Position numbers and translations under genes: made by a program
IMG/VR virus record: IMGVR_UViG_3300044991_001838
Span: 64,001 to 128,000 of that record
Length of the DNA: 64,000 nucleotides
Direction: 5' to 3' (one strand)
Source: a virus
Lineage: Duplodnaviria; Heunggongvirae; Uroviricota; Caudoviricetes
The notes under the pieces: generated by a model
What the model was told of the DNA's origin: nothing
Databases searched by the model: none
The model's input: only the letters and a program-made list of their open reading frames with translations
Shown here: piece by piece, positions 5,892-36,269 of the stretch
Layout of the letters: the number at the start of each line of letters is the position of its first letter
Numbering within the stretch: position 1 is the first letter of the stretch

Positions 5892-5892
5892 A

Positions 5893-6681: not shown

Positions 6682-6686
6682 CTATA

Positions 6687-9546: not shown

Positions 9547-9550
9547 AATT

Positions 9551-10351: not shown

Positions 10352-10352
10352 A

Positions 10353-14394: not shown

Positions 14395-15551
14395 TGTATA
14401 TCAATTTTTAATCCCTCAGGACTTGTCCCCCTTGGGAAAAATTTTAAACGACCATTGTAGGATTCGCTTAAAGTGTTTAAGTTTTTTATAATCTCGGGTC
14501 TCTCAATTAAATTAACCATATACCCCTCATCTAATAAATCTATACATAGTTTATATTGTTGAGATTCCTCTAAACTATCAGAACCTTTTTTATAAGTAAT
14601 ATAATTCATAACAAAAGGAACCTCTTTATTTGGGTTTAAGGAAATGTAATGATTCTTTAAAAACAAAAAATGTTCTTCATTAAATTTGTTTATTGCGATG
14701 GGTAATGTTAATTCCATATCTAAATTTTCTCCAAATTTAACTAATGCTCGATTACCTTTTGGTAAGTAAGGTCCACCAAATCCAAACCCATATTTCATAT
14801 TTTTTTTACCAATCCTTGAATCTCCTCCAATTGCATTTAAAACAAGGTCAATTTCTTCATTTAATCCAGATTTCATTAAAACATTTCCTATCATATTCGC
14901 ATAACTAATCTTTGATGCGACCATACAATTAATACTAATTTTAGTAATTTCAGCGGCTTTATAACTCATAATATGGGCGTTTAGCTGGCCTGTTTGGATT
15001 CTTCCATAAATTTTTATTAACTCATTTGATAATTCTTGATATTCAGTACCTATTAAAAGAATATCTAAATTTTCAAGACCACTGACGGTACTATTTTGAG
15101 AAATAATTTCAGGACAATACGCAACTTGAATATCAAACATTCTAAGTTTATTCTGTATTTGTTCAACATCACCAGGATTAGTTGTACTTCCCACAACAAA
15201 TTTTTTATTATAAATTGGTATCTCTAATTGAGATGCGGTAAAAAACTCGTTAGTAATTTCAAAAAGGGTTGTTGTGTCATAATCACCATCTAAAGTTGGT
15301 GGGGTTGGCACAAACGTAAAAATTATATCAGATTTTTCAATGACTTCCACATTTGAAGTTGTTGCACTAAAATCATAAACCTCAAATAACATTTTCTGAA
15401 TTAAAGGCTCATTTGTTTTACAAATACCTTGATTTAAATTATAAACATAATCCTCATTAGTGTCGGATACCAAAACATTGTATCCCGCCTTTTCACATAA
15501 TAATGCGAAAGATAATCCTAAATTTCCTACCCCGATAACGCCTATAGTCAT
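14391..15551 (-). CDS. UDP-glucose/GDP-mannose dehydrogenase family protein, catalytic Cys absent
   Basis: GVIGVGNLG, FVPTP, AEITKISIN, KISYAN; GFGGPYLPKG where GGxCxxxD is expected. Confidence 0.8.
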   Translation of the reverse strand: MTIGVIGVGNLGLSFALLCEKAGYNVLVSDTNEDYVYNLNQGICKTNEPLIQKMLFEVYDFSATTSNVEVIEKSDIIFTFVPTPPTLDGDYDTTTLFEITNEFFTASQLEIPIYNKKFVVGSTTNPGDVEQIQNKLRMFDIQVAYCPEIISQNSTVSGLENLDILLIGTEYQELSNELIKIYGRIQTGQLNAHIMSYKAAEITKISINCMVASKISYANMIGNVLMKSGLNEEIDLVLNAIGGDSRIGKKNMKYGFGFGGPYLPKGNRALVKFGENLDMELTLPIAINKFNEEHFLFLKNHYISLNPNKEVPFVMNYITYKKGSDSLEESQQYKLCIDLLDEGYMVNLIERPEIIKNLNTLSESYNGRLKFFPRGTSPEGLKIDIQ

Positions 15552-15552
15552 A

Positions 15553-17181: not shown

Positions 17182-17184
17182 AAA

Positions 17185-17802
17185 CTATATTAATCCTGTA
17201 CTTCCAAAACCATTATCACCTCTATCTTTGTCTTCGATTTTATCTAATCGATTTAATCTAACATATTTTCCTGTGAATACAGGACATAAAACGGCTTGAG
17301 CAATTTTCATACCTTTATTAATACTAATCGCTTCTCCACCTGCGTTCAAGACAATAACTTTAATTTCACCATTATATCCTGAATCAACAGTACCAGGGGT
17401 GTTTAATACTGTTAGGCCATGATTAATTGCCAACCCACTTTTAGGTCTTACTTGAACTTCACAATCGTCAGGGATTGATAATTTAATACCTGTCGGAATA
17501 AGAGCCCTACCTGATGGTGGAATAATACAATCAACAACTGAATGTAAATCAAATCCTGAATCAGATTTATATGCGTATGATGGAAACTTGGCGTCAGGGT
17601 GAATTAACTCAACACCTAAAACTTTACTTTTAATTGCGGTTTCAGTATCACGATTCATTTCTTCTATAGACATACCAAAAATTTCTTCTAACTCTTTTTG
17701 ATAAGTTTCCTCAGGTTCAACACCCGCTTCCGATATTATGTTTTTAAATTGTTCTTGTATTTGAGCCCACCCTTCTGGACTTATACCTAAATTTTCAGTC
17801 AT
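17185..17802 (-). CDS. dut: dUTPase (trimeric) with acidic N-terminal extension
   Basis: SGFDL, RPKSGLA, PGTVDSGYNGEI, KIAQ, RGDNGFGSTG. Confidence 0.93.
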   Translation of the reverse strand: MTENLGISPEGWAQIQEQFKNIISEAGVEPEETYQKELEEIFGMSIEEMNRDTETAIKSKVLGVELIHPDAKFPSYAYKSDSGFDLHSVVDCIIPPSGRALIPTGIKLSIPDDCEVQVRPKSGLAINHGLTVLNTPGTVDSGYNGEIKVIVLNAGGEAISINKGMKIAQAVLCPVFTGKYVRLNRLDKIEDKDRGDNGFGSTGLI

Positions 17803-18503
17803 TACTTTAATTTTAATAATTTATTAATTACGTCGATTAATACCGACACATCTTTTTCACAATATTTTACAATACCTTCAATATCTTTTTTAACCCAAAA
17901 AGCGTCATGAACTTTATTACCTGTGATTTCCATTGTTTTAGAAGATTCAACCCCTAAACAAACACACATAAGTTCTAACGATGCAATAGACCCATAACCA
18001 CCATATTGCCAAAGTTCTTTAGTGTCAAGAGCTTTGATTTCCCATGGCTTGGTATCGTGACCTGGTAATATTTTAGGAGGAAGAACTCCATTCATAATCA
18101 TTCTTTTTGCCAACATTGGTATGTCAAAACCTTTAACATTATGACCACATAAAAAGAAACCTAATTCACCAACTCTATGTAAGAGTTTTTGAACATCTTC
18201 TAATAGTTTTTTTTCATCAGGGTCACTGAATGATTGCATCTTAGTTTCACCTTTTTCAGTAACAAAGGCAACACTAACACAAGCAATTCTTGCAAACTCA
18301 GGAACTAATGCAGCTCTGTTTACAAACATTTCACCCACAGGTTTGTCAGCGTCTTCAGGGAATCTTTTTTGAAACCAATCGTGGTAATTTCTAAATTGGA
18401 ATGCCAATTCAGGTCTATTAGATTCAAGTGACTCCCAATCAGGTTGGACACCGACAGTTTCGATATCCAAGAATAAAATTTTAGTTAAAGGTATGTTTAT
18501 CAT
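17802..18503 (-). CDS. Stand-alone DEDD 3'-5' exonuclease (PolB-exo-like)
   Basis: FLDIET, GHNVKGFDIP, YCEKDV. Confidence 0.85.
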   Translation of the reverse strand: MINIPLTKILFLDIETVGVQPDWESLESNRPELAFQFRNYHDWFQKRFPEDADKPVGEMFVNRAALVPEFARIACVSVAFVTEKGETKMQSFSDPDEKKLLEDVQKLLHRVGELGFFLCGHNVKGFDIPMLAKRMIMNGVLPPKILPGHDTKPWEIKALDTKELWQYGGYGSIASLELMCVCLGVESSKTMEITGNKVHDAFWVKKDIEGIVKYCEKDVSVLIDVINKLLKLK

Positions 18504-19714
18504 TATACAATTGATTTATAGAATTCCGCTCTTGTTTTTGTTACGATGTTAAGGTCATATTTGTCTTTTACAGTCTCATATAGTCTTTCACCCATATCTT
18601 TTGCTAAGTTAGGGTTTTTTACTAACTTTTCAATAAATTTCGCCCAATCAGAATGATTTCTATTTTCATCAACTAACATAGCGTTTCCATCAACAAACTC
18701 TCCATTTTTTAAACAATGTTTTAAGTCGATAGTATATGGTCCTAAATCAGATGCTATTAAAGCCTTTTTATAGAATCCCGCCTCAATTACTTTTAATTGA
18801 GATTTCATTCTATTAAACATAGTGTTTTTAATTGGTGATAAAGAAACATCAAACTTAGAATAATTTTTAGCATATGATGTTACAGGTTTTGTCCAAACTC
18901 TAACATATGATTCATCTAAATCACCTGTATAGATATCTTGATTGTAGTTTACCAAATGTTTTTTATATTCATCTGATACAATAGAATAATCTTGTGTAAA
19001 TATTTTTTCATATTGAGCCCAAACGGTTTCATGTGGAAGAATATTTCGTTTTGTTTGTTCTCCTGTTTGAGCGTTAATTTCAGTAACAGTTCCTCTTGTG
19101 TCAAAACCACAAAGAACATATTGAACTTTATCTTTAAGAGATTTTATTTTACTAAACCCTTGGTCTAACAATTGTATGTCGTGTAAGTGAGAAGAACCAC
19201 CTAACCAACCAATTCTAAGTTTATTAGACTCTAATGTTGGTTCTTTAAATTGAGATTCGTTAGGGTTAATTGCGTTAGGGAATACAACAACATTCTTGTT
19301 TAATTTTTTGATTTCATCGGCAAATATTGTGGTTGTAGTTGTTACATACTTTGCAACTTTTAAATTCTCAACAATCTTTTCGTTGATTTTGTGAACTTTA
19401 ATAATATCGTGAATTGGGTGCTCTTTTCCTGGCATCCAATAATCGTCAATATCACAAATAGTAATTACCCCTAAAGAATTTAATTTTTCAATAAGTTGTT
19501 TGGCCCTTTCAAAATCAGGCCCAATACTTCTATGGAATGATACTATTTGGTATTGAGTCCAATAATTAATATCGTCAAATGGTGGGTCATATACAATATC
19601 GACATAAAAATCATCAGGATATTGATTTTGTAAAAAAATGTGAGGGTCTACTGACCTAAACTTACCAACTCCTGTTCTATCGGATGGTACTACTAGTACT
19701 TTAATTTTTGACAT
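18503..19714 (-). CDS. GT-B glycosyltransferase
   Basis: DIDDYW, RIGWLGGSSHLHDI, FNRMKSQLKVIEAG. Confidence 0.75.
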   Translation of the reverse strand: MSKIKVLVVPSDRTGVGKFRSVDPHIFLQNQYPDDFYVDIVYDPPFDDINYWTQYQIVSFHRSIGPDFERAKQLIEKLNSLGVITICDIDDYWMPGKEHPIHDIIKVHKINEKIVENLKVAKYVTTTTTIFADEIKKLNKNVVVFPNAINPNESQFKEPTLESNKLRIGWLGGSSHLHDIQLLDQGFSKIKSLKDKVQYVLCGFDTRGTVTEINAQTGEQTKRNILPHETVWAQYEKIFTQDYSIVSDEYKKHLVNYNQDIYTGDLDESYVRVWTKPVTSYAKNYSKFDVSLSPIKNTMFNRMKSQLKVIEAGFYKKALIASDLGPYTIDLKHCLKNGEFVDGNAMLVDENRNHSDWAKFIEKLVKNPNLAKDMGERLYETVKDKYDLNIVTKTRAEFYKSIV

Positions 19715-22497: not shown

Positions 22498-25400
22498 ATG
22501 GCATATCAAAATATTAATCAATATAATTTTAGGAGATGGGGTATTAAACCCGTCAACGAAATCACGGACATATGTCTCGCATCAGATGAGAAAGACTATG
22601 ACCAAGAGGTGATATTCTCCCCATTATTAATAGGTGAGGACGATGGTAATAGAATGCCATTTAAGTTTGACTTTAATAGTTCGGGTACCACAATTTGTCA
22701 AACAGGTGGATGTAATTTTGATACCAATACTATCGTATCTGAAAATTATTGGAACCCTGACCACCTTGACCCAAACTTTTGTCCTGTAGTTACAAATTTA
22801 TGTGACGTTGGGTTAACTGGTATAGATAATGGTCTTGTTAAGAATATGTCAGGTGAGACAATTCAAATTACTACAGGACTTTATACTTCATCTGCTGACA
22901 CATATAGTAGATACAAATACGATAGGAGAATGAAAATGCATCCTATCACAGGATTTACTACAACTCAAAATAGATTATGGAACGATAATTCATATTCATA
23001 TGACATGTCTTATGTCACCAATGGAACACCTGTTGGATATTTTGCAAGATTAAATGGTGGGTTCTTCCAAGGATTTTATAAATTATCTGATTATGATTAT
23101 CAAGTATTCCCTCAAAGAGTTTCATTAGGTTGGACTGCGGAGTTTGTATTGAAATATAGATGGACAGGTGATACTAATGTTGGATTAAACGCTCGTTATC
23201 CTGACAATAAAGGAACATTCTTTTATATGGGGGCAAGAGCTGAAAATAAATTCTATCATTATGCTGACGGTTCACCAAAACAAGACACAGGTTATACAAG
23301 AGTAACATCAGGATTAACTTGTATGCATACTTGTGGATGTGCAAGTAGTGCCAATACCTCATCAGAGTGTCTTCAAGTCTATCAACCATCAGGAGGAACA
23401 ATAACACATTGTACTTGTGGATGTCCTTGTGATTGCCAAACAACCGCCAAATACCCTGAAAAAGACCCATTATATGATGGAGTCTCAAATGGTATATCTC
23501 TTAGACTTAGTGGTGATACAGGAAACCCAAGGTTATGTGTTAAGACTTATAGAATTACCGGAGGATGTGAACATAGTGGAACTTGTCTTACAGGATTAAC
23601 ATATCATACAGGAACCTCAGTTACCGAATGGTGTTCAACCAGAGGTATCTTTAGTGATTGTAGTGGAACCACATACCCTAATGTAGAACATTGGGTTCAA
23701 ATTGATGCGGTATTCCAAAGAAAAGAATGGTTTGATAAATGTGACCTATATGAAAAGGGTGGTCTTGGGTTATTAGTTAAACAAGAATATTTTGCAACTA
23801 TTGAAAACAGAAGTCCTACATTAGTTGAACCACCTTTGACACACGAACAACCTTATAACCCACCATATACCGAAGTCGTTACATTTAACGATATGTGGAC
23901 CGAAGAACAAAAATATAGATTAGGTAATCTTAAATTTTATGTTAACGGTAAATTGTTTATGGTTGCGGAAAACTTTGAAGAAATTATCCCAAGACTTCTT
24001 AATGTTGAAAAAGAAAAACAAATTGGTGTTGGATATAACATCTCTGTGGGTGGGGGAACTCAAGGATTACATGATAATCTTACTTTTTCTGCAGGATGTC
24101 CTGCCGAGTTAAGTGGTATTACATATCAACAAGACCCTGAATGTTTAACAACAAATGATTTAACACATACCGAATATTCAGGACTTACAACTCAAATTAG
24201 GTTGGAAGAAATATTTGGAGGTAGTTTGATTGGGGATATCAGTGCATTTAGAATGTACACCGAACCATTAAATGCCTCTCAAATTAAACATAATTTTAGA
24301 ATATTAAAATATAAGTATGACCTACTTGACCCTAATTGTTTAAATTGTAGAATCATTATTCCAAATAATGATTTAATTTACATTTCAGTACCATGTAATG
24401 ACTTAGGATATACATTATATCCATGTCCAACCGTGACACCAACAATGACTCAAACTCAAACTCCTACTCCAACAAATACACAAACTTCTACTCCAACAAA
24501 TACACAAACACCAACAAATACGCAAACTTCTACCCCAACAAACACAAAAACACCAACTCCTTCAGTTACTGTAGGATTAACACCTACCGCAACTCCAACT
24601 AATACTGAGACGCCAACTAAGACGCCAACAAACACACCAACCAATACTAAAACTCCAACAATGACACCAACTAACACAACAACACCTACGGTAACACCAA
24701 CTAATACTAAAACCCCAAATCAAACTCCAACTAACACATCAACTCCTACAATAACACCAAGTAATTCTTCATGTAAGAGTTATTTGTTATTTGGTGGAAT
24801 TCAAAATCAAACAACCTTTGTTGGTATTGATTGCGATGGATTTGCTTTTGATACCTTCTTAGATGTGTATGCTACTCAAGTTATTTGTGCTGAATCTGTT
24901 CAAATTGCCGACGGGGATGGTAATATTACACTATTAGGTAGTTGTCCTTTACCAACCCCAACTCAAACCCCTACTAATACCGTAACAAAAACTCCAACTC
25001 AAACTCAAACCCCAACTCAAACTAATACAAAAACACCAACTCAAACTCCAACCAATACAATGACTCAAACACCAACTAATACAATGACACCAACTCAAAC
25101 CTCAACTAATACAATGACACCAACTCAAACCCCTACTAATACAATGACACAAACCCCAACTAATACAATGACACAAACCCCAACTAATACAATTACACAA
25201 ACCCCAACTAATACAGAAACTCCAACGCAAACACCAACACCTACAAGGTCTAGAACCGAATTTGTTAGTTGTTATGGATTGACACAAGTTGATGCATGTT
25301 CATGTTTAGATAATTCTACAATATGGGGGGATAACTCTAATTTTGATGAAAACGCATTTTTCTATGATTCAGAATTTGGTGGTAATACAACAGATTTAAT

Positions 25401-26211
25401 AGGTTATTACAATTATTCAAATGTTGTTGTTGAACTTAATTCAAATGGGGATATTGTGGGTAATTATAATCTATGTCCAATTCCAACCCAAACTCAAACA
25501 CCAACTCAAACTCAGACTCCTACGAATACTGAGACAGGAACTTCTACCCCAACCCCAACAAACACGGAAACTCTGACTCAAACACCTACACCTACAAATA
25601 CCAAAACACCAACTCAAACACCAACTCAAACAAATACAGAGACCCCAACTAGTACACCAACACCAACACCTACACCTAATTATAATGTAACATTTATCAA
25701 TAATTCAACAAACGGAATAATAGAAGCCTTTGCGGATAACAGTGGACAAATACCATTATTTGATTCAACAAGTTCATTGCCTTTGAATGGTGGTGGCCAA
25801 GTACTTTTTGCAAATCATGGGTTAACTTCTAATTCACCTCAAATTGCGTTAAATGGTACAGGTTCTGTAACAATTCAAATTAAAATTAATGGAAATGTTT
25901 TAGTGGATTCAGAGACTGTTGTACCTAGCTCAATTGGTGTAACACCAGGAGGTGTTCCATTGCAAGCATCTGATGTTTTAATTATAACAATTGGAGATAT
26001 TCCACCAACACCGACACCAACTCAAACAGAAACTCCAACTCAAACACCAACAAATACTGAGACCCAAACTCCAACTCCAACAAATACTAATACCCCGACT
26101 AACACCGAAACACCAACACCGACACCAACACCAACTGAATTAGTTTTCTTGGCTCAAGAAAATTATTTTACCATACAACAAGAAGATGGTTTTAATATTT
26201 TCGTAACCTAA
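22498..26211 (+). CDS. Large putative virion fibre protein: LamG/ConA-like N-region, Cys-bounded modules, four Thr/Pro-rich tracts
   Basis: IGDISAFRMYTEPLNASQIKHNF (LamG-like end); PT/QT/NT repeats; many Cys. Confidence 0.65.
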   Translation: MAYQNINQYNFRRWGIKPVNEITDICLASDEKDYDQEVIFSPLLIGEDDGNRMPFKFDFNSSGTTICQTGGCNFDTNTIVSENYWNPDHLDPNFCPVVTNLCDVGLTGIDNGLVKNMSGETIQITTGLYTSSADTYSRYKYDRRMKMHPITGFTTTQNRLWNDNSYSYDMSYVTNGTPVGYFARLNGGFFQGFYKLSDYDYQVFPQRVSLGWTAEFVLKYRWTGDTNVGLNARYPDNKGTFFYMGARAENKFYHYADGSPKQDTGYTRVTSGLTCMHTCGCASSANTSSECLQVYQPSGGTITHCTCGCPCDCQTTAKYPEKDPLYDGVSNGISLRLSGDTGNPRLCVKTYRITGGCEHSGTCLTGLTYHTGTSVTEWCSTRGIFSDCSGTTYPNVEHWVQIDAVFQRKEWFDKCDLYEKGGLGLLVKQEYFATIENRSPTLVEPPLTHEQPYNPPYTEVVTFNDMWTEEQKYRLGNLKFYVNGKLFMVAENFEEIIPRLLNVEKEKQIGVGYNISVGGGTQGLHDNLTFSAGCPAELSGITYQQDPECLTTNDLTHTEYSGLTTQIRLEEIFGGSLIGDISAFRMYTEPLNASQIKHNFRILKYKYDLLDPNCLNCRIIIPNNDLIYISVPCNDLGYTLYPCPTVTPTMTQTQTPTPTNTQTSTPTNTQTPTNTQTSTPTNTKTPTPSVTVGLTPTATPTNTETPTKTPTNTPTNTKTPTMTPTNTTTPTVTPTNTKTPNQTPTNTSTPTITPSNSSCKSYLLFGGIQNQTTFVGIDCDGFAFDTFLDVYATQVICAESVQIADGDGNITLLGSCPLPTPTQTPTNTVTKTPTQTQTPTQTNTKTPTQTPTNTMTQTPTNTMTPTQTSTNTMTPTQTPTNTMTQTPTNTMTQTPTNTITQTPTNTETPTQTPTPTRSRTEFVSCYGLTQVDACSCLDNSTIWGDNSNFDENAFFYDSEFGGNTTDLIGYYNYSNVVVELNSNGDIVGNYNLCPIPTQTQTPTQTQTPTNTETGTSTPTPTNTETLTQTPTPTNTKTPTQTPTQTNTETPTSTPTPTPTPNYNVTFINNSTNGIIEAFADNSGQIPLFDSTSSLPLNGGGQVLFANHGLTSNSPQIALNGTGSVTIQIKINGNVLVDSETVVPSSIGVTPGGVPLQASDVLIITIGDIPPTPTPTQTETPTQTPTNTETQTPTPTNTNTPTNTETPTPTPTPTELVFLAQENYFTIQQEDGFNIFVT
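24427..24759 (+). repeat. Thr/Pro-rich coding repeat tract 1
   Basis: (PT/QT/NT/KT)n. Confidence 0.9.
24952..25245 (+). repeat. Thr/Pro-rich coding repeat tract 2, with TPTNTMTQ-type units
   Basis: Repeated ccaactaatacaatgacacaaacc-like 24-mers. Confidence 0.9.
25483..25677 (+). repeat. Thr/Pro-rich coding repeat tract 3
   Basis: [18 protein letters not shown]... Confidence 0.9.
26002..26136 (+). repeat. Thr/Pro-rich coding repeat tract 4
   Basis: [21 protein letters not shown]... Confidence 0.9.
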
Positions 26212-26241
26212 ACTTAATAATATTTATAAAATAAAAAGAAT

Positions 26242-26811
26242 ATGCCGAATTTACCAATATCACAATTACCTGAAATAACCGCCACGACATCGAATGCTGA
26301 ATATGTTGTTGCTCAAGATGGTGTTACATATAAAATTAAAAGAGGTTATATGGCGAGCGGTAAATTATATGGTTCGTTTTATCAAGAAAATAGTATATCA
26401 GGATTAACACCTGATACTGCATATTCTATGAGTGCTTCGACAACATCCTCTAATAATGGGATAACGGTTGTTGATGGGTCAAAAATGACAGTTCAAAGTG
26501 GTGGAACATTTAATATACAATTTTCCGCTCAATTACAAAAACAACAAGGAGGGTCATCAGAAAGTATTACAATATGGTTGAGGAAAAATGGTGTTAATGT
26601 TGATTGGTCGTCAACTGATATTACATTCGCTAATAATAATCAACTTGTGGTGGCAGCTTGGAATTTTGTGGAAACATTATCAGCGGGTGAAAATTTGGAA
26701 ATTATGTTTTCAATAACGGATACTGAAATAATCATATACGGAAACCCATCAAGAATAACACCAATAAGACCGGCAATTCCATCTGTTATTATAACAATGG
26801 TTCAAATATAG
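26242..26811 (+). CDS. Putative virion protein with ISQLP N-motif and C1q/BclA-C-like domain
   Basis: PISQLPE; GTFNIQFSAQL...IWLRKNG...AAWNF..TLSAGENLEI. Confidence 0.55.
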   Translation: MPNLPISQLPEITATTSNAEYVVAQDGVTYKIKRGYMASGKLYGSFYQENSISGLTPDTAYSMSASTTSSNNGITVVDGSKMTVQSGGTFNIQFSAQLQKQQGGSSESITIWLRKNGVNVDWSSTDITFANNNQLVVAAWNFVETLSAGENLEIMFSITDTEIIIYGNPSRITPIRPAIPSVIITMVQI

Positions 26812-26813
26812 AA

Positions 26814-27386
26814 ATGAACACAACAGACTGTAATTATTTTAGGATAACAAATTATAATACCGTACAAGAAGGTTATTATAGATGGACAGGATGTACTGAT
26901 ATTGTTAGTGTTAGTACTATAGACCCACTTAAAACCGAATATGTTTGTGCAAAAGATATTCTTGTTGAAAGTTATAGTGCTCCTTTAGATATTGTCTTTG
27001 TAGGATTATGTCCGTCAACAACACCTACACCAACCGTCACCTCAACTCCAACACAAACATCAGTAACACCAACACCAACATCTACTTCTCCCACACCAAC
27101 TGTTACACCAACACCAACTGTTACACCAACAACTGTTTTTATGTATAATTTACGAACAGGAGGTTGGTATCAAGATGTTTGTGGTTCTGTTAATATGACG
27201 GCTAATCCAGCAAATGTGACCATTTATACATCAAAACTTTTTTCAAATTTAGTTAAAGGTGATTATGTTTATGGTGATAAATCTTTAACAATACCACCAA
27301 ATGGTACCAATTTTACAATATCCGATGGTGCCACATTTATACAATTAGGGGGTAATCAAGTTATTAATGTCGGAATTTGTGGATAA
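26814..27386 (+). CDS. Thr/Pro-rich two-module putative virion protein
   Basis: Two Cys-containing modules joined by a PTPTVT linker. Confidence 0.65.
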   Translation: MNTTDCNYFRITNYNTVQEGYYRWTGCTDIVSVSTIDPLKTEYVCAKDILVESYSAPLDIVFVGLCPSTTPTPTVTSTPTQTSVTPTPTSTSPTPTVTPTPTVTPTTVFMYNLRTGGWYQDVCGSVNMTANPANVTIYTSKLFSNLVKGDYVYGDKSLTIPPNGTNFTISDGATFIQLGGNQVINVGICG

Positions 27387-27422
27387 TGAATTATAAAGTA
27401 AAAAGTGTCTATATTTATTAAC

Positions 27423-27962
27423 ATGGCAGATTGTGGTGTATTAATTTCTAGTGTAAATTTGAGTGGATTAACAACCGAAGTTACGTTCTTTCCTCAAACG
27501 GGAGGTACCGTAGATTTAGGGTATCAAGTTTTTCCATTTAGCTATGTTGCGGATTATTATTATGGGACATATAATTGTTATGTACCAACATATGCGTATA
27601 CCTATACAATTGCCATATTAGGACCAACTCCAACTCCAACACCAACCAATACGACAACACCTACTGTGACTCCGACTCAAACACCTAGTGTAACTCCAAC
27701 TAATACGGAAACTTTAACACAAACTCCAACCCAAACGACTACTCAAACTCAAACACCTACTAATACAGGAACACCTACTCAAACACAAACGACTACTCAA
27801 ACTCAAACACCTACTAATACAGGAACACCTACTCAAACGCCAACCTACACTCAAACCCCAACCCCAACAGAAATACCTATAGTTCTTATAAACCCAATCC
27901 TAATTGATATTCCAAACGAATATCTTAGTGTTGGGAATGACGAATATCTAAAATTTAATTAA
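27423..27962 (+). CDS. Thr/Pro-rich putative virion protein
   Basis: ATG at 27423 follows TATTTAT (27412-27418); the track's GTG at 27405 is less likely. Confidence 0.65.
   Translation: MADCGVLISSVNLSGLTTEVTFFPQTGGTVDLGYQVFPFSYVADYYYGTYNCYVPTYAYTYTIAILGPTPTPTPTNTTTPTVTPTQTPSVTPTNTETLTQTPTQTTTQTQTPTNTGTPTQTQTTTQTQTPTNTGTPTQTPTYTQTPTPTEIPIVLINPILIDIPNEYLSVGNDEYLKFN
27732..27839 (+). repeat. 54-bp direct tandem duplication (53/54 identical)
   Basis: caaacgactactcaaactcaaacacctactaatacaggaacacctactcaaac(a/g) x2. Confidence 0.9.
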
Positions 27963-27974
27963 AAACACAAAAAT

Positions 27975-28553
27975 ATGTTGACAGGAAAAACAATTAGCGA
28001 ATTACCACAATTAACAGGAGTGACCGATACTATGGTACTACCCGTAGAATTAAGTGGAGTGACTTATCATGTTGATTATGTTCAGATTGCACATAAAGCA
28101 AATGCTGCCTACTATAATACCGAGACACAAATAGTTTCTGGGTCTAATACACCATCAATTGTATTACTAAACACTATTGTAAATGAATCAAATATTAGAT
28201 TGGTTAACAATTCAAAAATTTATGTTGACTTAGACGGTACCTACCAATTGGGAGTATCTTATCAATTAGGGAAAGCAACACTTGCAGGTGGTGCAGCAAC
28301 AATTGTTTTTTGGGTTAGAGTTGATGGTGTTGATGTAACAGATAGTGCAGGGGAAATTGTTTTAGTTAATAATACAGATAAAACATTACCTTTTATCCCA
28401 TATTATTTTGATTTAACCGCTGGTCAATACATTGAACTTGTCTTTGCATCGGCGGATGACACCGCTAAAGTCTTCACCGTACCCGCTTCATCATCACCAT
28501 ATGTTAGACCTTTAATTCCATCGACATATGTTACAATAAACCAATTATCTTAA
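27975..28553 (+). CDS. Putative virion protein with ISELP N-motif and C1q/BclA-C-like domain (paralogue of 26242)
   Basis: KTISELPQL; GTYQLGVSYQL...FWVRVDG...YFDLTAGQYIELVF; both end in RP.IPS. Confidence 0.55.
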   Translation: MLTGKTISELPQLTGVTDTMVLPVELSGVTYHVDYVQIAHKANAAYYNTETQIVSGSNTPSIVLLNTIVNESNIRLVNNSKIYVDLDGTYQLGVSYQLGKATLAGGAATIVFWVRVDGVDVTDSAGEIVLVNNTDKTLPFIPYYFDLTAGQYIELVFASADDTAKVFTVPASSSPYVRPLIPSTYVTINQLS

Positions 28554-28638
28554 TAATAGGTAATAAAAATATAAAATTTAAACCCTATTTAATAAATTAG
28601 AATAAATCGTAGTATTTATAAGAAAATAGAAATATACC

Positions 28639-30549
28639 ATGGCATGTAGTAAATATACTTTAACGAACACCGGTTCAACAATTGTGAACTTTAATTATAG
28701 AAGATGCGATGACTCTCTTTGGGAGTATCAAGTTGAATTGAACCCTAACCAAACAAAAAACATTTGGTTAATTAATAATACATATTCAATATCTCCTGTT
28801 TATGTTAATTCGGTTTCTTTGTTTAATCAAGGTGCGTTTCCTCCTGTTGGTCAAACGGCAACGCCAACTCCAACTGCGACTCAAACCCCAACTATAACTC
28901 CAACTCAAACTCAAACTCCTACGCCGAGTACGACTGCGACTCAAACCCCAACTCAAACTGGAACACCAACTCAAACTCCTACTAATACGCAAACTCAAAC
29001 TCAAACTCCTACTAACACCGAAACTCCAACTCAAACTCAAACCCCTACTAACACCGAAACTCCAACTCAAACTCCAACTCAAACACCAACCCAAACTCAA
29101 ACACAAACTCCAACTAATACAGAAACCCCAACTCAAACTCAAACTCCAACTAACACAGAAACTCCAACTCAAACACAAACACAAACAGTGACAGGAACGG
29201 CGAATGTAACTCCAACAGTAACTCCAACTCAAACTCAAACACCAACTTCACCTCTTCAAGTATTTAACATATTTTCAGGAGACAGTTCAAATGAAGCTTG
29301 TAATTCTGGAATTTCAACAACACTATACGCATTTAATCCAACATTTGATGCAAATACTCAATTCTATAATGACCCATCAGGAATTGTTACAATTGATTTA
29401 ACAGGATTCTATAGTAACAATTCATCTGTTACTGAATTAAGTTCAGGTGGAACTCAACTAGGGTTCTATAGTCTTTGCTCATTATTACCAACTTCAACTC
29501 CAACAGCGACAACTACTCAAACACCTACAAATACACCAACACAAACAACAACACCAACAGCAACATTTGGTTATTATACCTATAGTTTAGGTACGGGTAG
29601 CACAACAAATGAAGCATGTGCTGATTTTAGTTCAGCCCCTAATACAGTTTATGGAACAGTTGCGGGTGGAGTAGGACCAAATTTAGGTGAATACTTATAC
29701 GTTAATACATCATTGACAACACCTGTTGCTGATGGTTATTACTCTAACGGTGTTGATTGGTATCAAGTATCAGGTGGAGCAGGACAAATTACTACAACAG
29801 ACCCTAATGGATGTGTGGGATTAATTACTCCAACTCCAACATCAAGTAATACTCCAACCCCTACAGAAACACCAACTAATACACCAACAGTAACAGAGAC
29901 ACCAACAGGAACACCAACCCAAACACCAACTAATACTGAAACTTCAACACCAACTCCAACTCAAACACCAACTCCAACATCTCCTCTTTTCGCATTTAAT
30001 GTGTTCTCAGGAAGTACTTCAAATACTGCATGTACGTCTGGAGTTGCAATAACACTACACGGATTTAACGCATTGTTTGACGCAAATACTCAATTCTATA
30101 ATAATTCAGACGGAACTGTTACGATTGATTTAGCAGGTTTCTTTAGTGATGGAACATCTGTTACACAATTAAGTTCAGGTGGAGCTCAAATAGGTTCTTT
30201 CACACTTTGTTCAGTAGTACCGACAGTAACTCCAACAGTAACTCAAACTTCAACACCAACAATGACACCAACACAAACAACAACACCAACAGCTACATTT
30301 GGTTATTACACTTATAGTTTAGGTACAGGTACAACGGCAAATTTAGCATGTATTGACTTTGGTTCCGCACCTAACACAATTTACGGAACAGTTGCAGGTG
30401 GTGTAGGTCCTAATGTTAGTGAATATTTATATGTTAATACTGCACTAACAATCCCAGTAACGAATGGTTATTACTCTAACGGTGTAGCTTGGTATCAAGT
30501 AACAGGTGGTGCAGGACAAATTACCTCATCAGACCCTAACGGTTGTTAA
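28639..30549 (+). CDS. Mucin-like Thr/Pro-rich putative virion protein with duplicated Cys-bounded modules
   Basis: About 130-aa (xT)n tract, then A-B-A'-B' modules. Confidence 0.7.
29242..30546 (+). repeat. Internal 573-bp duplication (29242-29814 and 29974-30546)
   Basis: Both units run PTSPL...DPNGC and are equal in length. Confidence 0.9.
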
Positions 30550-30580
30550 TAATTTAAAATAAAAATAAAATATATTATTC

Positions 30581-30610
30581 AAAACCCTCGACATTCTCGG
30601 GGGTTTTTTT
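30581..30610 (+). terminator. Intrinsic terminator
   Basis: aaaaccctcga-cattc-tcgggggtttt hairpin plus T-tract. Confidence 0.75.
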
Positions 30611-30635
30611 ATGTTTATCATAAAATATACAATAT

Positions 30636-31901
30636 ATGAAAATTTTTATTCAGATTGCGTCCTATCGAGACCCACAATTAGTACCAACTATTAAAGATAT
30701 GTTGGCAAACGCCAAAAGACCCAAAAATTTAGTGTTGTCAATTGCAAGACAATTTGCTGAAGAAGACGGGTTTGATAACTTAGATGAATATAGAGATGAT
30801 AAGAGATTTAAAATCTTAGATATCCCATATCAAGAAGCCAAAGGAGTTTGTTGGGCAAGAAACTTAACTCAACAACTTTATGACGGTGAAACATATACCT
30901 TACAAATTGATTCTCATATGAGATTTGTTAAGGATTGGGATGATATCCTAATCAAAATGATTAAGGGTCTACAAAAAGATGGTTATAAGAAGCCTCTACT
31001 TACGGGTTATGTACCATCTTTTGACCCTGAAAATGACCCAGCAGGAAGGTCTCAAGAAGCTTGGAGAATGGTGTTTGATAGATTTATTCCTGAAGGAGCA
31101 GTATTCTTCTTACCTGAAACAATTCCAGGTTGGAAAGAAATGAAAAAACCTGTTACCGCAAGATTCTATTCTGCCCACTTCTGTTTTACATTAGGAGAAT
31201 TTTCAAAAGAAGTTCAACACAACCCTGAATATTATTTCCACGGAGAAGAGATTTCAATTGCTGCTAGAGCTTACACTTGGGGTTATGATTTATTCCATAC
31301 TCACATACCTGTTGTTTACCACGAATACACTCGTAAAGGTAGAACAAAACAATGGGACGATGATAAAACTTGGGGTGATAAAAACAAACATTCTCACCAT
31401 ACAAATAGAAAACTATTTGGAATGGATGGTGAAAAACAAGAAGGACATGATGGACCTTACGGATTTGGAACTGTTAGGACTTTAAAAGATTATGAAAAAT
31501 ATTCAGGTCTTTTATTTGAAAAGAGAGCAATTGACAAATATACTTTAGATAAAAATTATCCACCAAACCCATATAACTTTGAAACAGAACAAGAATGGAA
31601 AGATAGTTTCTGTATGGTGTTTAAACATTGTATTGATATTGGATATTCTCAAGTTACTGAAACTGATTATGACTTTTGGGTTGTTGCGTTCCACGGTAAA
31701 GAAGATAAAACATTATTTAGAAAAGATGCCGATAAGAATGAAATTGCAGGATTTATGAGAGACCCTGATAAATATTGTAAAGTTTGGAGAGATTTTCAAA
31801 CAGACGAATTACCAGAATACTGGGTTGTGTGGCCACACTCAGAATCAAAAGGGTGGTGTGATAGAATTACAGGTCAATTAAACCACAATGTTGTAAGTTA
31901 A
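30636..31901 (+). CDS. GT60-like polypeptide/hydroxyproline N-acetylglucosaminyltransferase
   Basis: IFIQIASYRD, AKGVCWARN, LQIDSHMRFVKDWD (DSH motif), YFHGEEISIAARAYTWGYD. Confidence 0.8.
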   Translation: MKIFIQIASYRDPQLVPTIKDMLANAKRPKNLVLSIARQFAEEDGFDNLDEYRDDKRFKILDIPYQEAKGVCWARNLTQQLYDGETYTLQIDSHMRFVKDWDDILIKMIKGLQKDGYKKPLLTGYVPSFDPENDPAGRSQEAWRMVFDRFIPEGAVFFLPETIPGWKEMKKPVTARFYSAHFCFTLGEFSKEVQHNPEYYFHGEEISIAARAYTWGYDLFHTHIPVVYHEYTRKGRTKQWDDDKTWGDKNKHSHHTNRKLFGMDGEKQEGHDGPYGFGTVRTLKDYEKYSGLLFEKRAIDKYTLDKNYPPNPYNFETEQEWKDSFCMVFKHCIDIGYSQVTETDYDFWVVAFHGKEDKTLFRKDADKNEIAGFMRDPDKYCKVWRDFQTDELPEYWVVWPHSESKGWCDRITGQLNHNVVS

Positions 31902-32635
31902 TGAATATTACCGATATACCTAAATTTATTGTTAATTTAGAAAGAAGACCTGACCGATTAGAACACATCAAAAAAGAGATGGAATATATCGGTTGGGATT
32001 ATGAAATATTTAAAGCGGTTGATTTAAATAATCATGGGGGGTGTACATTATCCCATGTAGAAATATTAAAAATTGCTAAAGAAAGAGGTTATGAATCAGT
32101 AATGGTTATTGAGGATGATTGTACATTCTTACCATATTCAAAAGATTTGATAAATAAAATTGAAACTGAAACAGGTGAATTTGAATTTGGGATTATTAAT
32201 CTTGCTCCCACTTTAAATAGACCTGTAAATCGTAGTGAGGAATTACCGTTATTTTTAGACATAACAAATCTTCCACCAAAAAAAGAACACGAACGAGGGA
32301 TATTTGCAACTAATATGATATTATATCATAAGTCAATTTATGATAATGTTATTGAAATGGAGAAACCTGAAATTTTAGGGTATTATGCTATTGATGATTA
32401 TATCTATCAATTTATTTTACCAATCAAACAAAGTTATTCTCCAATATTACCAATCGCCCCTCAAATGAGTAGTTGGTCCGATGTATCTCAGGGTCAGTAT
32501 AATAATTTTTATACTCAAACTTATAATTGGAATGGGTATAGTCCTTGTAAAATACCTTCGGAATATTTAAACGGAACATTAACACAAGATTTAAAAAACA
32601 ATAAAGAACACAAACAATTTACATATGTCAGTTAA
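31901..32635 (+). CDS. Glycosyltransferase family 25
   Basis: IVNLERRPDR, GCTLSH, VIEDD. Confidence 0.8.
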   Translation: MNITDIPKFIVNLERRPDRLEHIKKEMEYIGWDYEIFKAVDLNNHGGCTLSHVEILKIAKERGYESVMVIEDDCTFLPYSKDLINKIETETGEFEFGIINLAPTLNRPVNRSEELPLFLDITNLPPKKEHERGIFATNMILYHKSIYDNVIEMEKPEILGYYAIDDYIYQFILPIKQSYSPILPIAPQMSSWSDVSQGQYNNFYTQTYNWNGYSPCKIPSEYLNGTLTQDLKNNKEHKQFTYVS

Positions 32636-33512
32636 AGTTAAATTTATTACATCAATTTATAGTGATTTATATGGTACAGAATTTGGAGGTAGAATGAGTA
32701 GGGGAGGGCACTATAGTTATAGTTTACTTTCTTTATTAAAAATGACCGACGCAGATTTTTTATGCTATACCTCAGATAGAGAAATAGAACCATTAAAACA
32801 ATTTTTTTATGAGACCCATTCAATATCTCCTGAAAAATTAAAATTTGAAATTTTTGATATTTCAAAAACAAAATTCCAACATTTAATTGAAGAATATAAA
32901 GATGTTGAAATGACTAAAAGGTCTGATAGATGTGTTGAAATTCAATACTCTAAATTTCATTGGTGGTGGAACGAAGATAAGTCCTACGATTATTATTATT
33001 GGATTGACGCAGGATTATCTCATTGTGGGTTAGTACCTAACAAATATTTAAGTGGAACTCATCCTGAACAAAGATATTATGAATGTAGTTTATTTAATAA
33101 TGATTTCTTACATAATATGATTGAAGATACTGGTGATAAATTCTTAATTATTGGTAAAGATAACGATAGAAACTTTTGGTCTCAAACTTTAGACCCAAAA
33201 TGGTACACAGAGTATGATAGGTCTCTTCATATTATAGGAGGATTGTTTGGTGGCCATAGAGATAAATGGGATAAAATAGTTAATATGTTTGAAGACTATG
33301 CGGAAAAAACTATTGTTGATGCAAAAAATTTACATCACGAAGAACCAATTATGACTTTGATGTATTTTAACCATAAAGAATTATTTGAAAGAAAACATTT
33401 TGATATTTGGTGGTGTAGAGATAATGCACCCGCAGGAGTAACGGATGAAATGTTTACATTAAACATAAGCTTTTTTAAAATTTTAGAAGAATTAAATAGA
33501 ATATATGAGTAA
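32625..33512 (+). CDS. HtrL/YibB (WlaTC-like) putative glycosyltransferase
   Basis: KFITSIY, YSKF, YYYWIDAGL, IIGGLFGG, EEPIM. Confidence 0.65.
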   Translation: MSVKVKFITSIYSDLYGTEFGGRMSRGGHYSYSLLSLLKMTDADFLCYTSDREIEPLKQFFYETHSISPEKLKFEIFDISKTKFQHLIEEYKDVEMTKRSDRCVEIQYSKFHWWWNEDKSYDYYYWIDAGLSHCGLVPNKYLSGTHPEQRYYECSLFNNDFLHNMIEDTGDKFLIIGKDNDRNFWSQTLDPKWYTEYDRSLHIIGGLFGGHRDKWDKIVNMFEDYAEKTIVDAKNLHHEEPIMTLMYFNHKELFERKHFDIWWCRDNAPAGVTDEMFTLNISFFKILEELNRIYE

Positions 33513-35178
33513 TATAACTTTAGTAACGGGTATTTGGGATATAGGTAGAGGAAACCTAACAGAGGGATGGAGTAGACCATTCCAACATTATTTAGACAAA
33601 TTTGAAAAATTATTAGAGGTTGAAGAAAACCTTATAATTTTTGGTGATGAAGAATTAAGAGAATTTGTTTTCCAAAAAAGAAAACACGAAAATACACAGT
33701 TTATTGTTAGACCTTTAAGTTGGTTTACAGATTCAGAGTTTTTTCCTTTAATTCAAAACATTAGGACTAACCCTGAATGGTATAATCAAGTTGGTTGGTT
33801 ATCAGAGTCAACTCAAGCAAAATTAGATAATTACAATCCTTTGGTGATGTCTAAAGTTTTTTTATTAAATGATGCCAGAATTATGGACCAATTTAATTCA
33901 GAATATATGTTTTGGATTGATGGTGGATTAACAAATACGGTACATCCAGGATATTTTACACATGATAAAGTTTTAGACAAGTTATCAAAATATGTTTCTA
34001 AATTTTCATTTGTTAGTTTTCCATACGATGCAGAGACTGAAATACACGGGTTTAATTACCCAAAATTAAATGAATATGCAGGAAACAAAGTAACTAAAGT
34101 TTCTCGAGGAGGATTTTTTGGTGGACCAACACATACAATCTCAGATATTAATGGGATATATTATGGGTTATTAAAATCTACATTACAAGAGGGGTATATG
34201 GGTACTGAAGAATCAATCTTTAGTATTATGTCATATAAACATTCTGATTTAATTAACTATTTTGAAATAGAATCAAATGGATTAATTGGTGGGTTTTTTG
34301 AAAGTTTAAAAAACGATGAACTTAAAGTAAAAAATGAAAATGGGACTAAAGAAATTAATTCATTGGACACAGGTAAAGTTGGATTATATGTCATTACCTT
34401 TAATAGTCCAAAACAATTTAGAACTCTTATTGATTCTATGTTGGCGTATGACGGAGATTACATTTTAAAAACTAAAAAGTTTTTATTAGATAACTCTTCT
34501 GATTTATCAACTACTGAAGAATATTTGAAAATTTGTGAGGAATATGGGTTTGAACATATTAAGAAAGATAATTTAGGTATATGTGGAGGAAGACAATGGA
34601 TTGCAGAACATTTTGAAGAAACAGATTTAGACTATTATTTGTTTTTTGAAGATGATATGTTTTTTTATCCAAATGAAGGTGCCGTTTGTAGAAATGGATT
34701 TAGCAGATATGTACCAAACTTATATTCAAAATCTTTAGAAATAATGAAAAAAGAAAACTTTGATTTCTTAAAGATGAATTATTCTGAGTTCTATGGTGAT
34801 AATGGAACCCAATGGGCGTGGTACAATGTACCTCAATCAGTTAGAGATGAATTTTGGCCGGGTAAACCAAGACTTCCTGAGATGGGACTTGACCCTAATG
34901 CACCAAAAACCAAATTTAACTCGGTATTATCACACAAAAGTATTCCATACGCTGTTGGTGAAGTTTACTATTGTAATTGGCCTCAAATTGTTAGTAGACC
35001 TGGTAATAAAAAAATGTTCTTGGATACAACATGGGCACACCCATTTGAACAAACTTGGATGAGTCATATGTATCAATTGGTTAAAAAAGATGAATTGTAT
35101 CCAGGTTTATTACTTATGACACCAACAGAGCATGATAGATTTGAACATTATAGTAGAGAGTTGAGAAAAGAATCATAA
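33505..35178 (+). CDS. HtrL/YibB domain fused to GT2-like domain
   Basis: TLVTGIWDIGR, SKVFLL, FWIDGG, GGFFGG, TEESIF; C-half LLDNSSD, NLGICGGR, FFEDD. Confidence 0.7.
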   Translation: MSNITLVTGIWDIGRGNLTEGWSRPFQHYLDKFEKLLEVEENLIIFGDEELREFVFQKRKHENTQFIVRPLSWFTDSEFFPLIQNIRTNPEWYNQVGWLSESTQAKLDNYNPLVMSKVFLLNDARIMDQFNSEYMFWIDGGLTNTVHPGYFTHDKVLDKLSKYVSKFSFVSFPYDAETEIHGFNYPKLNEYAGNKVTKVSRGGFFGGPTHTISDINGIYYGLLKSTLQEGYMGTEESIFSIMSYKHSDLINYFEIESNGLIGGFFESLKNDELKVKNENGTKEINSLDTGKVGLYVITFNSPKQFRTLIDSMLAYDGDYILKTKKFLLDNSSDLSTTEEYLKICEEYGFEHIKKDNLGICGGRQWIAEHFEETDLDYYLFFEDDMFFYPNEGAVCRNGFSRYVPNLYSKSLEIMKKENFDFLKMNYSEFYGDNGTQWAWYNVPQSVRDEFWPGKPRLPEMGLDPNAPKTKFNSVLSHKSIPYAVGEVYYCNWPQIVSRPGNKKMFLDTTWAHPFEQTWMSHMYQLVKKDELYPGLLLMTPTEHDRFEHYSRELRKES

Positions 35179-35194: not shown

Positions 35195-35572
35195 ATGGAA
35201 TTTTATATTAAAAAGAATGCAACATTACCTGTGTTAAAAATGCAGGTAGTTAAAGATGGTAGGGCCGGTTACATGCAACTAATGCAAGACTTGGAGGTCT
35301 CTACTATTTTTTTTACTATGATTGAAGAGGAGACAGGTATTCCTAAAATTGTCTCCGCTCCTGCTGAAATAGTTAATTTAATTTTACCTGAAGGTTCTGA
35401 CCCCGAATATTATATCTATTTTAAATTTACAGAAAGAGATACAAATACACCGGGTCGATATCAAGGACAATTTTTAATTAAAAACGACGAAGGAAATTTA
35501 ATTCTTCCGATTAGAGAAGAACTTTATATTAATATCCAAGATAGTTTTATTTCAGAAACTGCTTGTTGTTAA
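35195..35572 (+). CDS. BppU-N-like virion structural protein
   Basis: FYIKKNATLP.L...DTNTPGRYQGQF; preceded by TATTTAT. Confidence 0.5.
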   Translation: MEFYIKKNATLPVLKMQVVKDGRAGYMQLMQDLEVSTIFFTMIEEETGIPKIVSAPAEIVNLILPEGSDPEYYIYFKFTERDTNTPGRYQGQFLIKNDEGNLILPIREELYINIQDSFISETACC

Positions 35573-35575
35573 CTT

Positions 35576-36061
35576 ATGAAACTAACTAATTTATTAACAA
35601 AGATAATTTTAGAGGAAGTAGGTACTACTATTCCTGTTACTAAATTTGTAACTGATGGTTATTTGATAACACTTAATGCCAGTAAACATCAGTGGAAAGA
35701 TAGACAAGGAAGTAAATCTCTTGAAGATATTGTTGAAATATATGAGGATAATTTTTTAAACAATCCTAAATTTTATGATAGAGTTGGCGTTCCAAACAGG
35801 TTAATTAAAAATGTATTTATTAATGATTTTTATATTATTAAAAAAAGGATGTCAAATTTAAATAATCCCAAAAATTCAGTGGTTTTTATAAAAGAAGTTG
35901 GTGATGAATTAAATTTACCTCAATATATGAATTTTATTGAATTTTTGTTATTCACGGAAGACTTAATAAACTATACAATAGTTACTTCCGTATTTTCAGA
36001 ATATGGTGATTACCTAAAAACTTTTGGAAAAACTAAAAATAGTCCAAGATTTATGTTGTAG
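35576..36061 (+). CDS. Hypothetical protein
   Basis: 161 aa ORF; MKLTNLLTKIILE leader. Confidence 0.6.
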   Translation: MKLTNLLTKIILEEVGTTIPVTKFVTDGYLITLNASKHQWKDRQGSKSLEDIVEIYEDNFLNNPKFYDRVGVPNRLIKNVFINDFYIIKKRMSNLNNPKNSVVFIKEVGDELNLPQYMNFIEFLLFTEDLINYTIVTSVFSEYGDYLKTFGKTKNSPRFML

Positions 36062-36236: not shown

Positions 36237-36242
36237 TGAATG

Positions 36243-36269
36243 ACCCAACATAAAAGTGTTGGGTTTTTT
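36243..36269 (+). terminator. Intrinsic terminator
   Basis: acccaaca-taaaag-tgttgggt followed by T-run. Confidence 0.75.

Follow-up and report, generated by a model that had tools for sequence, protein, structure and literature searches.

The 64-kb stretch of viral DNA analysed here, referred to as the window (positions 64001-128000 of the 129.6-kb IMG/VR viral record IMGVR_UViG_3300044991_001838, CheckV completeness 43%), carries four genes for proteins with long tracts in which Thr alternates with other residues and, downstream of them, a cassette headed by a gene for a glycosyltransferase (GT) of family GT60. We conclude from sequence comparison that the phage probably sugar-coats its own proteins, because the GT60 module is found beside Thr/Pro-rich proteins in many bacteria and in other phages. 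The reading that we favour, with moderate confidence, is that the Thr tracts of the phage's own fibre-like proteins are O-glycosylated in the cytoplasm of the host.

Threonine tracts and the GT60 cassette of the window

A regular-expression scan of the translations found P-containing (x-T)n tracts in exactly four open reading frames (ORFs) of the window, all on the + strand between 22498 and 30549. These genes, together with two tract-free genes lying among them, are the following (lengths in amino acids, aa):

22498-26211, + strand: 1237-aa tract protein, with tract blocks at residues 644-757, 819-920, 996-1059 and 1170-1213 (324 tract residues)
26242-26811, + strand: 189-aa tract-free protein, a paralogue of 27975-28553 (29% identity), with no Pfam or PHROG match
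26814-27386, + strand: 190-aa protein, two small domains connected by a 40-residue PT/ST tract (residues 67-106)
27405-27962, + strand: 185-aa protein with an 82-residue x-Thr tract (residues 74-155); alternative ATG at 27423
27975-28553, + strand: 192-aa tract-free paralogue of the 189-aa protein (BLASTP E = 5e-20)
28639-30549, + strand: 636-aa bead-on-a-string protein, with tract residues 72-203, 284-309, 396-447 and 528-553 (236 in total)

An initial annotation of the sequence had assigned such tracts to genes starting at 22498, 26814, 27423 and 28639. Translations and scan bear this out for the first, second and fourth; in the third the tract is real, and position 27423 is an internal ATG of the ORF 27405-27962.

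Dense Ser/Thr/Pro tracts, the kind of substrate that a mucin-type O-glycosylation system uses, were found in these four proteins over a total of 682 residues, of which 338 are Thr. The Thr phase of the tracts is 97% T, and the x phase consists of P (40%), Q (21%), N (12%) and E (5%). All four Thr codons are in use and the DNA repeats of the tracts are degenerate, with periods of 6-66 bp and matches of 67-94% for most arrays; the regularity is therefore maintained at the protein level. In one complete relative, the tract pattern gave 186 matches and a control pattern read backwards gave 0, and the tracts are therefore far beyond chance. An antisense ORF opposite the long tract of the 636-aa gene (28786-29238, - strand, 150 aa, rich in S, L, W and C) was rejected as a gene and regarded as a by-product of the repeat.

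The 1237-aa protein opens with a domain of about 640 aa that is rich in Cys; after it come three globular domains of small size and a short tail, with the tract blocks as joints. In the 636-aa protein, an N-terminal domain is followed by two types of Cys-bounded domains (80-86 aa) in two copies each, the pairs being 61% and 81% identical, and one of these types recurs in the 1237-aa protein. A fifth tract gene, encoding 453 aa, lies outside the window (G000:C1:38429-39787, equal to L167:8429-9790), and one Cys-bounded domain of its product has a homologue in the 1237-aa protein. The 1237-aa, the 636-aa and the fifth tract protein all contain recurring domains of this type, 60-86 aa long. In a language-model atlas, the neighbours of the N-terminal domain of the 1237-aa protein are LamG/concanavalin-like, and those of the 189- and 192-aa tract-free paralogues include clusters with Mtd_N (58% of members) and C1q (22%), both of which we take as leads. 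Domains of the Mtd_N and C1q types occur in the receptor-binding fibre tips of phages. A Pfam search of the globular pieces of the tract proteins at E 5 gave nothing usable, the sole PHROG match of the 1237-aa protein is the tract itself (phrog_15511, low-complexity), and no signal peptide is evident at the N-termini of the tract proteins as read from the translations.

The gene that follows the tract genes encodes the enzyme proposed to act first:

30636-31901, + strand: 421-aa GT60-family (PF11397) GT-A glycosyltransferase with DxH (D92, H94), a distal H229 and a C-terminal beta domain at about residues 325-414

It had been annotated as GT60-like, and the profile search settles the point: the product matches PF11397 GlcNAc (GT60) with an E value of 1.2e-64 and 219.4 bits against a cut-off of 21, which was confirmed on the genome record. 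D92, H94 and H229 are invariant in an alignment of 72 homologues and fit the DxH plus His metal site of the GT60 and GT27 families. An AlphaFold2 model built from this 72-sequence alignment reached a pLDDT (predicted local distance difference test) score of 95.7, compared with 38 for a single-sequence model. The top Swiss-Prot fold match of the model is Dictyostelium Gnt1 (E = 6e-24, template-modelling score 0.64, 23% identity) and all the other Swiss-Prot fold matches are polypeptide N-acetylgalactosamine (GalNAc) transferases; the best 50 Protein Data Bank (PDB) fold matches are GT27 polypeptide GalNAc-transferases throughout, at a sequence identity of 10-18%. At the sequence level, neither the protein nor a profile retrieved any PDB entry. 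By sequence and fold, the enzyme is a member of GT60/PF11397.

In the model, the first beta strand begins at residue 3, with no membrane anchor, and the enzyme is soluble because the chain opens directly with this strand. The catalytic domain is followed by a beta-rich domain of about 100 residues. From sequence and model, the product of 30636-31901 is predicted to be an initiating polypeptide N-acetylhexosamine (HexNAc) transferase. The family is very large: in the neighbourhood of the query, grouping at 90% identity gives more than 7,400 clusters as a lower bound, and there are 4,366 clusters at 50% identity.

The partner genes of the enzyme, the hairpins that border them and a glycan cluster on the other side of the tract genes are:

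30581-30607, + strand: terminator-like hairpin with an 11-bp stem and a T run, separating the last tract gene from the GT60 gene
31901-32635, + strand: 244-aa GT25-family glycosyltransferase (Pfam E = 4e-14); its start overlaps the GT60 stop, and its slot is variable in other lineages
32625-33512, + strand: p295, 295 aa, a conserved module member with weak HtrL-like motifs, 31% identical to ORF332 of phage XacN1 and present in Gemmatimonas-type operons
33505-35178, + strand: p557, a 557-aa fusion of HtrL_YibB (residues 3-252) and a C-terminal GT-A-like domain
35195-36061, + strand: two small ORFs of 125 and 161 aa inside the same terminator-bounded unit as GT60, with no XacN1 homologue found
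36242-36265, + strand: terminator-like hairpin closing the GT cassette ahead of the DNA polymerase gene
282-19714, - strand: divergent glycan cluster of about 20 kb with sugar-nucleotide and GT genes

The genes for GT60, GT25, p295 and p557 overlap or abut within one terminator-bounded unit. The GT25 gene had been named as such from the start, and its Pfam match agrees. Two HtrL-family genes had also been called, which is correct for p557, whose N-terminal half matches PF09612 HtrL_YibB at E = 2.3e-19 (70.5 bits, cut-off 24.1), and is only weakly indicated for p295, which has no Pfam match even at E 5; p295 and the HtrL half of p557 share a weak BLASTP similarity (E = 0.039) with the common motifs WIDAGL and GGxFGG. 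The C-terminal domain of p557 has a weak phrog_842 match and an EDD motif. In a megablast search, the GT cassette had no match among isolated phages.

The sugar cluster had been annotated at 1-19.7 kb, and it does exist there, on the minus strand. It contains genes for a GDP-mannose 4,6-dehydratase, a DegT aminotransferase, GT11 and GT10 fucosyltransferase-like proteins, a UDP-galactopyranose mutase, a methyltransferase, a UDP-glucose dehydrogenase and a GT2_5+GT4 fusion, as well as three GT2 genes. A gene of the NAD-dependent epimerase/dehydratase family in the cluster possibly encodes a GDP-fucose synthase, a name that Pfam does not give. PhoH, dUTPase and PolB-like exonuclease genes are interspersed. 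This cluster may be linked to the tract proteins as a source of sugars.

The source phage is uncultured and from freshwater. With a GC content of about 31%, the window includes genes for a tail sheath, a helicase and a DNA polymerase; those for terminase and portal lie shortly upstream of it in the same record, and relatives reach 321 kb with direct terminal repeats; the phage is therefore a low-GC jumbo myovirus. Among isolates its terminase has just distant T4-like relatives (identity at most 30%). One GT60 homologue, P0079, which is 75% identical, carries the NCBI nr label Candidatus Elulimicrobium; the sequence probably comes from a phage contig that was binned with an ultra-small bacterium, or else the label hints at the host.

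The module beside Thr/Pro-rich proteins in other phages and in bacteria

GT60, p295 and p557 form a conserved module in the XacN1-type Xanthomonas jumbo phages XacN1 and Xoo-sp13, at identities to the window proteins of 46-47% for GT60, 30-31% for p295 and 41% for p557; among isolates, p295 and p557 were compared with these two phages, and GT60 also with the Stenotrophomonas phages RAS14 and CM1, which are GT60-positive as well. The GT60 homologues of XacN1, Xoo-sp13 and RAS14/CM1 are 44-47% identical. In place of GT25, XacN1 and Xoo-sp13 have a carbamoyltransferase and another gene between the module genes. GT60 and p557 are also present in a marine contig, with a methyltransferase and a weak sulfotransferase-like match in between.

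We looked at the position of tract genes relative to GT60 along an identity gradient, since the viral-contig scan, led by a distant homologue (A2), returned mostly the wider lineage of the window rather than independent clades. In close relatives (GT60 86-96% identical), tract ORFs lie immediately upstream in 76 of 80 loci, and the other 4 have less than 300 bp of upstream sequence. These tract ORFs vary widely in length and number next to a conserved GT60, a pattern that exposed, fast-evolving proteins would be expected to show. Among divergent loci (GT60 41-79% identical), tract ORFs lie at most 10 kb away in 42 of 55, and about three quarters of the relatives at 57-79% identity have them; in L136, L105, L134, L148 and L135 they are on the opposite side and strand. 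The co-occurrence and adjacency of GT60 and PT-rich genes that had been put forward as a test of the annotation thus came out favourably within the lineage.

The same holds outside it. An unrelated contig, L086, has two tandem GT60 genes, 43% and 51% identical to that of the window, and the pair is directly preceded by a Peptidase_S74 tail-fibre gene and a gene for a protein of 651 aa, about 150 residues of which form an x-Thr/Ser tract. In XacN1, alternating-Thr matches number 213 against 2 for the backwards control, in Xoo-sp13 150 against 5 and in RAS14 15 against 1. The XacN1 tracts are located in ORF174, 180, 190, 232-236 and the 2823-aa ORF384, and its GT cassette adjoins baseplate wedge genes. 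A BLASTP comparison of the globular domains of the window proteins with the tract proteins of XacN1 and L086 revealed no homology, and therefore the common feature is the tract and not the domains. In the XacN1 tracts, T makes up 85% of the Thr phase and S the other 15%, and the x phase is 42% P, the remainder being V/A/R/I where the window has Q/N/E: the Thr and Pro positions are retained, and the other x residues track the base composition.

Seven large phages that are GT60-negative, namely RaK2, GAP32 and five T4-like phages, have x-Thr tracts at background level. RaK2 and GAP32 were selected as those that the XacN1 paper gives as closest for structural genes, and the five T4-like phages as the closest to the window by terminase. 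An independence of GT60 from PT-rich genes, which would have spoken against the initial annotation, was thus not what we saw. Additionally, at least 2 Schiff-stained glycoprotein bands have been reported for purified XacN1 virions, for which the authors propose ORF328 and ORF334 as makers (PMC5852040). In our comparison, XacN1 ORF334 is the GT60 homologue, and the homologue of p557 is ORF330.

Bacterial GT60 homologues were found at 548 loci or more in species-representative genomes, and the following counts rest on the best 80 of these at least 548 loci. p557 adjoins GT60 in at least 35 of the 80, at an identity of 32-64%. In 26 of the 80, i.e. about one third, the module has a stringent Thr/Pro/Ser-tract ORF no more than 1.5 kb away. 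The expected share is about 0.5%, as determined from random 3-kb spans in 58 control regions, each 20 kb long, that were drawn from 29 of the genomes concerned. In this 29-genome subset, tracts of at least 20 residues occur at 7 of 29 GT60 loci versus 2 of 58 control regions (Fisher p = 0.0055).

The proteins next to the bacterial module are of several kinds. In Gemmatimonas-type operons of metagenome-assembled genomes (MAGs; L181, L182, L186 and L189), the order is a p295-like gene, a PqqD-domain protein, GT60 and p557, and the PqqD-domain protein has a hydrophobic segment and a C-terminal Thr/Pro/Ser tail. PqqD domains usually serve as peptide-recognition elements, and the operon looks like a dedicated substrate-plus-enzymes unit. 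Immediately downstream of GT60, L220, L226 and L234 encode small proteins that carry a twin-arginine motif (RRQF) and whose body is almost purely PT, which suggests a modification in the cytoplasm ahead of twin-arginine translocation (Tat) export. In Saprospiraceae/Lewinellaceae, neighbours of GT60 combine an RRxxLK-like motif, a tract and a type IX secretion system (T9SS) sorting domain. In L217 (Ralstonia sp.), the VgrG spike protein of a type VI secretion system (T6SS) (Phage_GPD, Gp5_trimer_C; 12270-15131, - strand) is encoded 1.2 kb from GT60 and terminates in about 59 (PT) repeats. All these neighbours are proteins that could be modified while still in the cytoplasm and that can exit in folded form.

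Some further loci were recorded on the side. L087 (GC 62%) has the gene order GT60, PqqD, ScmC-like, GT60, a further peptide-modification-like context. In L215 (Achromobacter) and L210 (Paraherbaspirillum), proteins of 800-950 aa that contain long (PT)n runs are encoded at a distance of 2.5-4 kb from GT60. In four Saprospiraceae/Bacteroidia MAG loci (L171, L173, L176 and L177), the p557 homologues, at 60-64% identity, are much closer to that of the phage than GT60 is, which has 42-44% identity to the distant homologue used as query; this may hint at a host or gene donor among the Bacteroidota, or else phage contigs were mis-binned, several of the contigs being only 5-15 kb long.

Proposed mechanism and its alternatives

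We infer the acceptor residue, the sugar, the location in the virion and the biological role as follows. During infection, the soluble GT60 enzyme would act in the host cytoplasm on newly made tract proteins, i.e. the products of the four genes upstream of it and of at least one more elsewhere in the genome. It would put a first HexNAc, by analogy alpha-linked N-acetylglucosamine (GlcNAc) from UDP-GlcNAc, on the hydroxyls of the spaced tract Thr residues. Extension or decoration of the chain would then be carried out by the conserved p295 and p557 together with a lineage-specific tailoring enzyme, which may be GT25 here, the carbamoyltransferase in XacN1 and the methyltransferase, with its weak sulfotransferase-like match, in the marine contig. 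Activated sugars may derive from the divergent 1-19.7 kb cluster. The product would be stiff, extended and protease-resistant mucin-like stalks that hold the small Cys-bounded and lectin-like domains off the particle.

Several observations weigh against this proposal. The strong terminator-like hairpin at 30581-30607 implies that the tract genes and the GT cassette are not one operon, and they are probably separate transcription units. The tract proteins match no known virion family in Pfam or PHROG, and their fibre nature is a lead drawn from language-model neighbours, hypervariability and the context in other phages. In 13 of the 55 divergent loci, including the full-flank relatives L149, L123 and L090, no tract gene lies within 10 kb. 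The fifth tract gene precedes the terminase and portal genes by about 4 kb and is about 47 kb away from the nearest tract gene of the window and about 55 kb from GT60, and complete relatives have tract genes at 3 or more places in the genome; adjacency alone is therefore a weak argument within the lineage. Loci of one lineage are also phylogenetically dependent, so that p-values overstate the significance. In XacN1 the tract genes are dispersed, with none beside the GT cassette, and the text and supplement of the XacN1 paper do not name the glycosylated virion proteins (PMC5852040). The O-glycosylation reading of the initial annotation is thus upheld in its family call and its co-occurrence, half upheld in its HtrL pair, and has to accommodate tract and GT genes that are probably transcribed apart.

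The terminator-like hairpin in between and the tract genes far from GT60 are also what one would see if the tracts were unglycosylated, proline-stiffened spacers merely co-located in a surface-related region with a GT cassette that, together with the 1-19.7 kb cluster, remodels glycans of the host envelope (lipopolysaccharide (LPS), capsule or surface proteins), for instance to block superinfection. GT25 and HtrL are families named from LPS and lipooligosaccharide core loci, and the sugar cluster resembles O-antigen or capsule clusters. The closest folds of the GT60 enzyme, however, act on polypeptides and not on lipid-linked or polysaccharide acceptors, and the strict retention of Thr and Pro while the other x residues drift exceeds what a spacer needs. 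The bacterial module stands next to or around Thr/Pro-tail genes about 60 times above expectation, the GT60-negative large phages lack such tracts, and XacN1 virions stain with Schiff reagent as glycoproteins. We consider this explanation unlikely.

The tract proteins might otherwise be glycosylated on hydroxyproline and not on Thr, as Skp1 is by Gnt1, after prolyl hydroxylation by a 2-oxoglutarate-Fe(II) oxygenase of phage or host. The best single fold match of the enzyme is indeed this Skp1-hydroxyproline GlcNAc-transferase, Pro takes 40% of the x positions, and the complete 321-kb relative G001 has three prolyl 4-hydroxylase-like (PF13640) genes (C1:28772-29065, 152970-153233 and 162023-162214). 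The module and the tracts, however, also exist in XacN1 and in the complete relative G002, where no PF13640 gene was found, and therefore a hydroxyproline route is not the general mechanism. Moreover, the position kept at 85-97% is Thr and not Pro, and the tracts of some bacterial neighbours are dominated by Ser/Thr. Altogether, we regard hydroxyproline as a quite improbable acceptor.

A role of the GTs in glycosylating hydroxymethyl bases of the phage DNA, by which restriction would be evaded, could be read from a weak PHROG match of the p557 C-terminal domain to a beta-glucosyl-hydroxymethylcytosine alpha-glucosyltransferase (E = 4e-4) and from a dUTPase/dCTP-deaminase-like gene in the neighbouring cluster, but it is very improbable, as GT60 and p557 are chromosomal in many bacteria beside secreted Thr/Pro proteins, the known GT60 enzymes and their fold relatives act on polypeptides, and no hydroxymethylase was seen in the window, where no search aimed at one was made.

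We therefore retain the O-glycosylation of Thr tracts in the cytoplasm as the reading of choice. If true, an abundant group of freshwater jumbo phages makes mucin-like glycoprotein stalks in the host with its own enzymes, which would be relevant to how phages adsorb, how they withstand proteases and grazers and how immunogenic they are, and to the evolutionary origin of mucin-type glycosylation; the module would also amount to a new bacterial route by which proteins are glycosylated ahead of export. In a broader and more tentative form, to which we give somewhat less than even chances, GT60 and the HtrL/GT-A fusion would constitute a widespread, undescribed prokaryotic system of cytoplasmic mucin-type O-glycosylation, with Thr/Pro tracts of proteins that exit folded (twin-arginine substrates, T6SS VgrG, PqqD-domain proteins and phage particles) as substrates; jumbo phages would use it with swappable tailoring genes for glycan-coated fibres, and the GT60/GT27 initiators of eukaryotes may have their root in this prokaryotic system. 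Our searches of the literature on GT60 with bacteriophage and on PF11397 found no description of a phage or bacterial GT60-HtrL module. To our knowledge, mucin-type initiation by GT60/GT27-like enzymes is regarded as eukaryotic, and the glycosylation of phage-particle proteins is known from very few systems.

Comparison with known systems

Dictyostelium Gnt1 is a cytoplasmic Skp1-hydroxyproline alpha-GlcNAc-transferase, and Dictyostelium Gnt2 and Trypanosoma cruzi OGNT are Golgi polypeptide alpha-GlcNAc-transferases that act on Thr in Thr/Pro repeats. The phage enzyme shares with these protist GT60 enzymes the Pfam family, the GT-A fold and the DxH with a distal His; it is soluble and anchor-free like Gnt1, and its candidate acceptors are repeats of the PTxT type, like the substrates of Gnt2 and OGNT. 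It differs in being only 23% identical to Gnt1, in its extra C-terminal beta domain of about 100 aa and in its partner, an HtrL and GT-A fusion instead of extenders of the PgtA/AgtA type. The GT27 enzymes of animals and Toxoplasma, which initiate mucin-type O-glycosylation, likewise have DxH metal binding and a C-terminal beta-rich domain after the catalytic domain, and their acceptors are dense Thr/Pro tracts, which here are candidate acceptors. In contrast to GT27, the phage enzyme would work in the cytoplasm rather than the Golgi, its identity to the GT27 enzymes is 10-18%, and its C-terminal domain is shorter than the ricin-type lectin domain.

In mycobacteriophages, capsid and tail-tube proteins are glycosylated by phage GT genes, as cited in PMC11256854 among other papers. 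A phage GT that modifies the phage's own structural proteins in the host is thus common to that system and to ours, for which it is a proposal. The virion glycosylation of mycobacteriophages uses other GT families, takes place in actinobacterial hosts and has its acceptors in extensions that the major capsid and tail proteins carry at their C-termini. We know of no long alternating Thr tracts in those acceptors.

The XacN1-type phages resemble the phage of the window in having GT60, p295, p557 and many x-Thr tract proteins, and differ in a terminase that is no close relative, in dispersed tract genes, in V/A/R/I at the x positions and in a carbamoyltransferase in the variable slot. The XacN1 paper draws no link from its glycoproteins to Thr tracts or to GT60 (PMC5852040). 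The bacterial GT60 and HtrL loci, for their part, are chromosomal and their candidate substrates are exported cell proteins, although some short MAG contigs may be mis-binned phage DNA; with the phage they have in common the same two or three module genes, a p557 that is up to 64% identical, and adjacent Thr/Pro/Ser-tract genes.

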